Source of the DNA: Escherichia coli
Lineage (GTDB): Bacteria > Pseudomonadota > Gammaproteobacteria > Enterobacterales > Enterobacteriaceae
Reading direction: 5' to 3' (one strand)
Assembly: GCF_017348835.2 (NCBI RefSeq)
Contig: NZ_CP071375.1
Length of the DNA stretch: 64,000 nucleotides
Position 1 is the first letter of the stretch. Each line of letters begins with the position of its first letter. The notes under the pieces are model-generated. The model was not told where the DNA came from. It did no database searches and was given only the letters and a program-made list of their open reading frames with translations. The position numbers were made by a program, and so were the translations under genes. Below, piece by piece: positions 57,198 through 57,532 of the stretch.

Positions 57198-57532
57198 TTT
57201 AATGTTATATCTGCCCCGCTAAAACGGGGCAGAGAATATGTTTAGTTTACTAACGCTCATTTTGCAGTGAAGCCATTTACTGTTTTTTATCGACCAGATA
57301 ATCTGTTCTCTGATGGTAATCCCCCCTAACCTGTTGCTTTAGTTATTCATTTCCTGCCTCACTTTGCCTTAATACCCTACGTTAAATGTTACTAATTTGT
57401 TGCCTTTGATCACAATAATAAAACAACATGTCGCTTTTGTGCGCATTTTTCAAAAATGTAGATATTTTTAGATTATGGCTACGAAATGAGCATCGCCATG
57501 TCACCCTACATCTCATAAGAGGATCGCTTCTG

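Follow-up and report, generated by a model that had tools for sequence, protein, structure and literature searches.

The DNA upstream of csiD (glaH) in an Escherichia coli genome as a probable orthologue of the K-12 csiD promoter, with placement of its CRP, core promoter and CsiR elements

The 335 bp preceding csiD (glaH) at positions 57198-57532 of the analysed DNA (a stretch of 64,000 nucleotides, referred to as the window) raise the question of which part of this DNA controls the gene, and where the controlling elements lie. In K-12, transcription of csiD is described as dependent on sigma-S and cAMP-CRP, both in vivo and in vitro (PMC3141248, PMC2859248 and PMC6265302, as they cite Marschall 1998 and Germer 2001). 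An earlier note, made from the letters of the window, had expected the known csiD promoter in this region and had considered read-through from, or shared regulation with, the AT-rich gene of GH13 type on its upstream side. The results presented below indicate that the right-hand part, 57334-57532, is very probably the orthologue of K-12 csiDp, which would drive csiD(glaH)-lhgO-gabDTP during carbon starvation and in stationary phase.

The region was found to be exactly the intergenic gap of 335 bp between a 750-aa plus-strand ORF, ending at 57197, and the ATG of csiD/glaH at 57533. The csiD/glaH coding sequence (57533-58510, plus strand, 325 aa) is the first gene of the csiD-lhgO-gabDTP operon; its product was identical to K-12 GlaH at 321 of 325 positions, and lhgO, gabD, gabT and gabP followed 3' of it, as they do in K-12. 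The csiR gene was present 3' of gabP in the near-identical genome PE164, and its location is past the end of the window.

The upstream 750-aa ORF corresponds to ygaQ, which is a pseudogene in K-12 but intact in the window. Its annotation in the near-identical strain PE164 is "alpha-amylase family glycosyl hydrolase", and in Pfam searches it matched Alpha-amylase_C with 27.8 bits, above threshold, and the catalytic domain with 21.9 bits against a cut-off of 22. GC content around this ORF was 30-40%, compared with approximately 54% in csiD, and this ORF is the AT-rich GH13-like neighbour described earlier.

Comparison with a strain lacking ygaQ divided the intergenic region into two parts. When the locus of clone D i2 was compared with the window by BLAST, the match covered 45907-46574 and resumed only at 57334. 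In this clone, which we assign to phylogroup B2, csiD lies directly 3' of the tmRNA gene ssrA (46061-46423 in the window); ygaQ is absent and the promoter is kept. The DNA between the two matches is an island of 10.8 kb at 46575-57333, the right edge of which falls inside the intergenic region, after ygaQ. It contains a large ypjA-like ORF, a ypjC-like ORF, ileY and ygaQ, and its GC content drops to 30-40% in the right-hand half, from about 51900. The ssrA-csiD island of K-12 is presumably longer, about 33 kb as estimated from K-12 coordinates.

In agreement with this boundary, about 1100 genomes matched just positions 137-335 of the 335-bp region used as a megablast query. Judged from these alignments, only 57334-57532 (199 bp, plus strand), common to E. 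coli lineages whether or not they carry the island, is core csiD (glaH) control DNA, and the left part, 57198-57333 (136 bp), is the tail of the AT-rich, ssrA-linked island carrying ygaQ and lies outside the conserved control region. This division of the region into csiD control DNA and island tail corrects the idea of regulation shared with the amylase-like neighbour.

Orthology to the K-12 promoter was evident from direct comparison. The 335-bp region differed from the K-12 csiD upstream region by 13 substitutions, with no indel, and the window, K-12 and a B2 strain were identical from 57454 to the ATG. The two promoters share their place before glaH, a gap-free alignment, the TCACA half of the CRP site, the -10 region and both CsiR primary sites, and differ in that the upstream ygaQ is a pseudogene in K-12 and intact in the window. 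Of 5426 complete E. coli genomes, 5379 contained the intergenic region. The comparison with the K-12 promoter suggested in the earlier note thus returned an orthologous sequence carrying the published elements at their published spacing.

For phylogenetic footprinting, 80 csiD loci were taken from a genome collection, and the 230 nt upstream of the ATG were aligned for 40 non-redundant Enterobacterales sequences, ranging from Escherichia to Hafnia. Upstream of 57388 the mean majority frequency over the 40 sequences was 0.43, and the DNA was essentially unconserved. Conservation set in with a flank at 57388-57395, just upstream of the CRP site, for which the value was 0.81 across the 40 orthologous promoters; this flank reads GTTACTAA in the window and GTTAAATA in most genera.

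The cAMP-CRP site was predicted at 57396-57417 (TTTGTTGCCTTTGATCACAATA), centred at 57406.5. The weight matrix employed was a symmetrised 22-bp matrix built from 20 classical sites, and its scores are approximate. The site scored 10.98 bits, the best value in the region, with 5.27 bits for the next best, and ranked fourth among the 63,979 positions of the window. When the region was shuffled 3000 times by dinucleotides, 153 shuffles (approximately 5%) reached the same score. The top match in the window lay about 60 nt upstream of a raiA-like ORF; as raiA is activated by CRP, this match was taken as a positive control.

The site has a perfect right half, TCACA (57410-57414), but its degenerate left half, GTTGC (57399-57403), makes it hard to pinpoint by eye. 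The earlier note had looked to half-sites of the TGTGA/TCACA type at appropriate spacing. The TCACA half was found intact; the complete TGTGA-N6-TCACA motif was recovered only weakly, its best fit being GTTGC CTTTGA TCACA (57399-57414), with three mismatches in the 10 half-site positions. With up to three mismatches allowed, 186 matches occurred in the window compared with 226 expected, which is chance level, and a half-site consensus search as the sole means of identifying the CRP site was rejected on this ground. For annotation pipelines, this means that functional CRP sites may escape a half-site consensus search. The matrix scan, which the same note had named as a check, gave one clear best site.

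Taken alone, the matrix evidence for the CRP site is suggestive; together with the comparative data, the prediction is solid. TCACA was invariant in all 40 orthologues, and the mean majority frequency over the 22-mer was 0.86. In 33 of 40 enterobacterial orthologues, the best matrix site was located at -68.5 or -69.5, with the start for the spacing set 12 nt downstream of the initial T of TATTTT. The published positions for K-12 csiDp are -68.5 (PMC2859248, as it cites Germer 2001) and -69.5 (RegulonDB v8, PMC3531196). A CRP site at -68.5/-69.5 is thus conserved well beyond E. coli, and the same holds for the CsiR operator described below.

Counting 68.5 bp from the CRP centre at 57406.5 leads to A57475 as the putative transcription start on the plus strand, equivalent to position 2788927 of K-12 NC_000913.3. 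The putative -10 hexamer is TATTTT (57463-57468, plus strand), 7 nt upstream of the start so implied, and its position agrees with that start. Both the start and the -10 hexamer were back-calculated from the published value of -68.5; the RegulonDB value of -69.5 would allow 57476. At the -35 position, the hexamer TGCGCA (57440-57445) matches TTGACA at only three of six bases, leaving no usable -35 element. A scan of 56900-57800 for sigma-70 consensus promoters returned none, which is consistent with an activator-dependent promoter.

Independent support for TATTTT as the -10 hexamer was provided by several Halomonas orthologues, in which TTGAC(A/G/T), read by eye, is followed by a 17-nt spacer and then TATTTT. 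As for published start sites, the supplement of Kim 2012 holds no entry for csiD, and literature searches by promoter sequence or by the K-12 start coordinate returned nothing relevant.

Between the CRP site and the -35 position lies an A-rich tract, ATAAAACAACA (57418-57428, plus strand, -57 to -47), within which AAACA is largely conserved. The tract is a candidate distal UP-element half-site. By its position, and by the title of Germer et al. 2001 as cited in PMC6265302, it might be the "distal UP-element half-site" of that study, which is a guess.

The 5' untranslated leader would comprise 58 nt (57475-57532, plus strand), with a Shine-Dalgarno sequence AAGAGGA at 57517-57523. No conserved RNA structure was detected in the leader (consensus energy about 0, no covarying pairs, single-sequence z = -0.22), and a permissive Rfam search of 56800-57900 gave nothing relevant. 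Two candidates for additional translation were rejected. The in-frame upstream ATG at 57428, which would add an N-terminal extension of 35 aa, lies upstream of the putative start and inside the repressor sites, and the leaderless mini-ORF ATGGCTACGAAATGA at the putative +1 is not kept as an ORF in Citrobacter.

The operators of the repressor CsiR (GlaR) were identified by comparison with the footprint of Knorr et al. 2018, in which two primary sites, TTGTN5TTTT and ATGTN5TTTT, are separated by 6 nt and accompanied by two secondary ones (PMC6265302). In the window, TTGTGCGCATTTT (57437-57449), TCAAAA and ATGTAGATATTTT (57456-57468) match the two published primary sites and their 6-nt spacing exactly. 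Relative to the putative start, these sites occupy -38 to -26 and -19 to -7, over the -35 position and the -10 hexamer.

Extended to 16-mers, the first primary site falls in an upstream operator, O-1 (57434-57449), which contains TTGTGCGCATTTT, covers the -35 position and showed a moderate mean conservation of 0.80. The second falls in the main operator, O1 (57453-57468), a near-palindrome AAAATGT-AG-ATATTTT that contains ATGTAGATATTTT and overlaps the -10 hexamer; 12 of its 16 columns were invariant over the 40 Enterobacterales. The O1 pattern AAAATGTAGA(T/C)ATTTT was found within 250 nt upstream of csiD at no fewer than 68 of the 80 loci, Halomonas and Pseudomonas included. The CsiD proteins of the Halomonas and Pseudomonas loci are only about 70% identical. 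E. coli sequences of the K-12 type miss this pattern only because of their GAAATG start.

A third operator-like 16-mer, O2 (ATTATGGCTACGAAAT, 57472-57487, -3 to +13), was located exactly 19 bp downstream of O1. From Escherichia to Hafnia, 14 of its 16 columns were conserved at 90% or more, and by position it is homologous to the second site of Pseudomonas, ATGGCGATATTTT (…TTATGGCGATATTTT). The published footprint window on the MS170 fragment, G22-G86, corresponds to 57419-57483 and takes in most of O2, up to 57483. From its register and its position in the footprint window, O2 probably represents one of the two secondary sites of CsiR. More broadly, a block of 42 bp (57452-57493, -23 to +19) had 33 of 42 columns conserved at 90% or more from Escherichia to Hafnia, and this block extends past the primary sites.

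The csiD promoter is already known, and each of its defining features that can be read from sequence is present in the window. The expectation of the earlier note that the 335-bp region carries this promoter was borne out by the orthology to K-12, the CRP site, the -10 hexamer and both CsiR primary sites. The promoter serves as a textbook model in which CRP position and a weak core promoter together give sigma-S selectivity, and its repressor sites were mapped in 2018; its elements can now be placed at base resolution in the right-hand 199 bp, the remainder being island tail.

In the mechanism proposed here, the core promoter would be weak, with the -10 hexamer TATTTT at 57463-57468 and no usable -35 element, so that RNA polymerase would need help. 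This help would be given by cAMP-CRP bound at 57396-57417, 68.5 bp upstream of A57475, which would recruit sigma-S polymerase, probably through C-terminal domains of the alpha subunit touching the A-rich tract that separates the CRP site from the -35 position. Repression would come from CsiR, a GntR-family protein occupying sites in a 19-bp register, namely 57434-57449, 57453-57468 and probably 57472-57487. As this operator array overlies the -35 position, the -10 hexamer and the start, CsiR would block polymerase until freed by glutarate. CRP at -68.5, sigma-S dependence, the CsiR consensus and release by glutarate were taken from the K-12 literature, and the orthology, the presence and spacing of the elements and their conservation across genera were read from the DNA; the exact start, the -10 hexamer, the UP half-site and what the third operator does were inferred.

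Among known promoters, class I CRP promoters such as lac (CRP at -61.5) resemble csiDp in lacking a -35 element and in carrying one upstream CRP dimer, which in csiDp is bound on the helix face of the class I positions. In gntKp and prpRp, with CRP near -69.5 (RegulonDB, PMC3531196), one upstream CRP dimer likewise activates a promoter without a -35 element. In csiDp, however, CRP at -68.5 activates sigma-S and not sigma-70 polymerase (PMC2859248, as it cites Germer 2001), which makes the position of CRP part of the sigma selectivity.

The closest comparison outside the Enterobacterales is PcsiD of P. putida KT2440 (Zhang et al. 2019, PMC6667623), which has a repressor of the same family and the operator core AAAATGTAGACATTTT. 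As in E. coli, a second site, beginning (T)TTATGGC, lies 3 nt past AAAATGTAGACATTTT, and the repressor covers the core promoter (PMC6667623). PcsiD is induced by glutarate, and the csiR gene of P. putida is described as transcribed separately from csiD and is not situated 3' of gabP (PMC6667623). The two promoters differ in register: the -35 TAGACA and the -10 TATTTT of the mapped P. putida csiD promoter (PMC6667623) are placed by us within the first operator and the second, respectively, which shifts the promoter 19 bp downstream relative to E. coli. One operator pair thus hosts a promoter in two registers 19 bp apart, one in Enterobacterales and Halomonas, the other in Pseudomonas; a comparison of the two registers was not found in the literature covered.

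This difference in register bears on where transcription of csiD would begin in the window and on what the conserved DNA past A57475 does. If the Pseudomonas register were used, the -35 element would be TAGATA (57459-57464), the -10 element CGAAAT (57482-57487) and the start near 57494. The mapped promoter of P. putida is consistent with such an arrangement, as is the very high conservation of the E. coli positions homologous to it. CGAAAT, however, has neither of the essential bases -12T and -11A, the sole credible CRP site would come to lie at about -87.5 instead of the published -68.5 or -69.5 (PMC2859248, PMC3531196), and Halomonas orthologues show TTGACA, 17 nt and TATTTT in the E. coli register, all of which makes a start in the Pseudomonas register extremely unlikely. 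With the start retained at A57475, the stretch 57475-57493 (ATGGCTACGAAATGAGCAT) could be read not as a CsiR site but as an RNA-level signal, a leaderless ORF (MATK-stop) or the site of another factor. It is about as conserved from Escherichia to Hafnia as the main operator, its right half, ACGAAAT, is a poor fit to the operator half-site ACATTTT, and an ATG stands exactly at the putative +1. This reading is nevertheless unlikely: the leader gave neither a conserved RNA structure nor an Rfam match, in several Citrobacter sequences AAACGA keeps the reading frame open where the mini-ORF should stop, the stretch is spaced from O1 by exactly the 19-bp register and has its homologue in the second site of Pseudomonas, and the published footprint window reaches 57483, with four CsiR sites reported (PMC6265302). 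Because ATGGCTACGAAATGAGCAT is near-invariant yet matches the CsiR half-site poorly, the half from +1 to +19 could also be more than a secondary CsiR site, either an element that sigma-S polymerase recognizes within the initially transcribed DNA or a binding site for an undescribed regulator of the glutarate/lysine pathway, although this is unlikely.

A terminator-like hairpin, TCTGCCCCG-CTAAAA-CGGGGCAGA, is located at 57210-57233 on the plus strand, 13 nt past the ygaQ stop codon, and is followed by the weak U-tract GAAUAUGUUUAGUUU. The terminator scan reported a stem of 9 bp with 7 GC pairs, and the centroid energy of the stem alone was -18.3 kcal/mol in RNA folding. For a 66-nt segment with the hairpin, the z value was -4.34, with none of 200 shuffles folding equally well. 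In the tail GAAUAUGUUUAGUUU the Us are interrupted, and it satisfies the loose rule of the scan, five T within 8 nt. The stem is kept in K-12 save for one loop base, and the hairpin probably ends the ygaQ transcript.

The promoter allele of the window is rare. Among the 5426 complete E. coli genomes, only 2 carried the identical 108-bp core promoter, and it differs from the K-12 type by four substitutions, at 57404, 57419, 57428 and 57453, that is, between -71 and -22. At each of these four positions, the alignment column varies between genera whose promoter is otherwise intact. Outside E. coli, most sequences carry A at 57453, and this base brings the first position of O1 back to the consensus. 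A repeat search of the promoter returned only short matches of chance size and an allele-specific 7-nt palindrome, CATTTTT-C-AAAAATG. As far as these alignments indicate, there is no reason to expect loss of function.

Material read-through from the ygaQ-like gene into csiD, with co-regulation of the two genes, would be favored by their common plus strand and the mere 335 bp between them, by the poor U-tract GAAUAUGUUUAGUUU, which may let termination leak, and by ygaQ being intact in the window and a pseudogene in K-12. It is very unlikely, however: the strong GC-rich hairpin stands 13 nt past the ygaQ stop, ygaQ belongs to an AT-rich island whose edge falls between hairpin and promoter, and the promoter is kept in B2 strains without ygaQ. 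Moreover, csiD of K-12, with the same hairpin upstream, is reported as exclusively sigma-S dependent in the title of Marschall 1998, as cited in PMC6265302. Since the hairpin 3' of ygaQ is strong, read-through is neither needed nor favored as an explanation, and the suggestion of the earlier note in this direction was not upheld. Altered regulation by the rare allele, in the form of tighter CsiR repression or weaker CRP activation, is decidedly unlikely as well. One of its four differences lies in the CRP spacer and one in O1; 57453 G>A turns the left half of O1 into the consensus and creates the 7-nt palindrome, and 57404 T>C slightly lowers the CRP score, from 12.3 to 11.9 bits in an earlier version of the matrix. 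This score difference is small, however, and variation at the four positions among genera with an intact promoter, together with the predominance of A57453 outside E. coli, argues against a regulatory effect.

Given the rarity of the allele, the quantitative behavior of the promoter could differ from that in K-12. The adjoining csiD-lhgO-gabD segment is likewise a rare haplotype, with two genomes at 99% identity or more and the next best at 97.5%. Over 12.3 kb, a single mismatch and a single 1-nt indel separated the window from the pig strain PE164, and the csiD-gabD segment was 100% identical to that of the pig strain F2_81.

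The segment 52930-64000, which includes csiD-lhgO-gabDTP, was only 96.15% identical to K-12. When the csiD-gabD part was compared with 5426 complete E. coli genomes, an identity of at least 99% was observed in two of them, the pig strains F2_81 and PE164, while the next-closest genome reached 97.5%. The segment is thus an uncommon and divergent haplotype that recombination may have brought in. The glaH gene was intact in the window and in F2_81. In PE164 (csiD locus L002), it was annotated as frameshifted, and one additional T (GATCACCGA-T-CTATG) was found at window positions 58044-58045 (csiD column 513), reflecting either a genuine pseudogene or an assembly error.

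Within the csiD upstream region (57198-57532), position 57453 was A in the window, where K-12 and the majority of E. coli have G. This A yields a perfect 7-nt palindrome, CATTTTT-C-AAAAATG (57444-57458), and brings the left half of the main operator (57453-57468) of the GntR-family repressor CsiR to the consensus found in other genera. The operator, AAAATGTAGA(T/C)ATTTT, was kept upstream of csiD across gamma-proteobacteria, as observed for the loci of Pseudomonas (L046-L084) and Halomonas (L043-L083). In both Halomonas and E. coli, the putative -10 element is provided by the right half of the operator. In Pseudomonas, the published -35 element (TAGACA) appears to come from this operator, with the -10 element lying within the second operator, and the promoter register is therefore shifted by 19 bp.

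Variation was also noted at the CRP site centred at -68.5. In Leclercia (L040) and Citrobacter sp. NCU1 (L041), this site retained TCACA and otherwise scored low for CRP, and a better CRP-like site, TTCCGTGAG…ATCACG, was present at approximately -140.5 upstream of csiD. These two loci may carry a second copy of the activator site, or the site may have moved. Just outside the 22-bp CRP site, the conserved flank at 57388-57395 (-87 to -80) reads GTTACTAA in the window, compared to GTTAAATA in most genera.

As a positive control for the CRP weight matrix, the match at 27651-27672 (TTATGAGATTTCCATCACACAT) was taken, which gave the highest score anywhere in the window (15.7 bits). A raiA/yfiA-like ORF (27732-28073) begins about 60 nt downstream of it and is followed by pheA; the match is probably the genuine site for CRP in the raiA promoter.

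A 10.8-kb island (46575-57333) separates ssrA (46061-46423) from the csiD promoter, AT-rich in its right-hand half (from approximately 51900) and containing a large ypjA-like ORF, a ypjC-like ORF, ileY, and ygaQ. Clone D i2 lacks this island and carries 333 bp of unrelated sequence at that place. The ygaQ-like alpha-amylase family gene (54945-57197) was intact in the window (750 aa), in contrast to the annotated pseudogene in K-12. Because the Pfam catalytic domain scored just at the threshold, a borderline match of 21.9 bits against 22 bits, the product was regarded as a divergent GH13-like protein.
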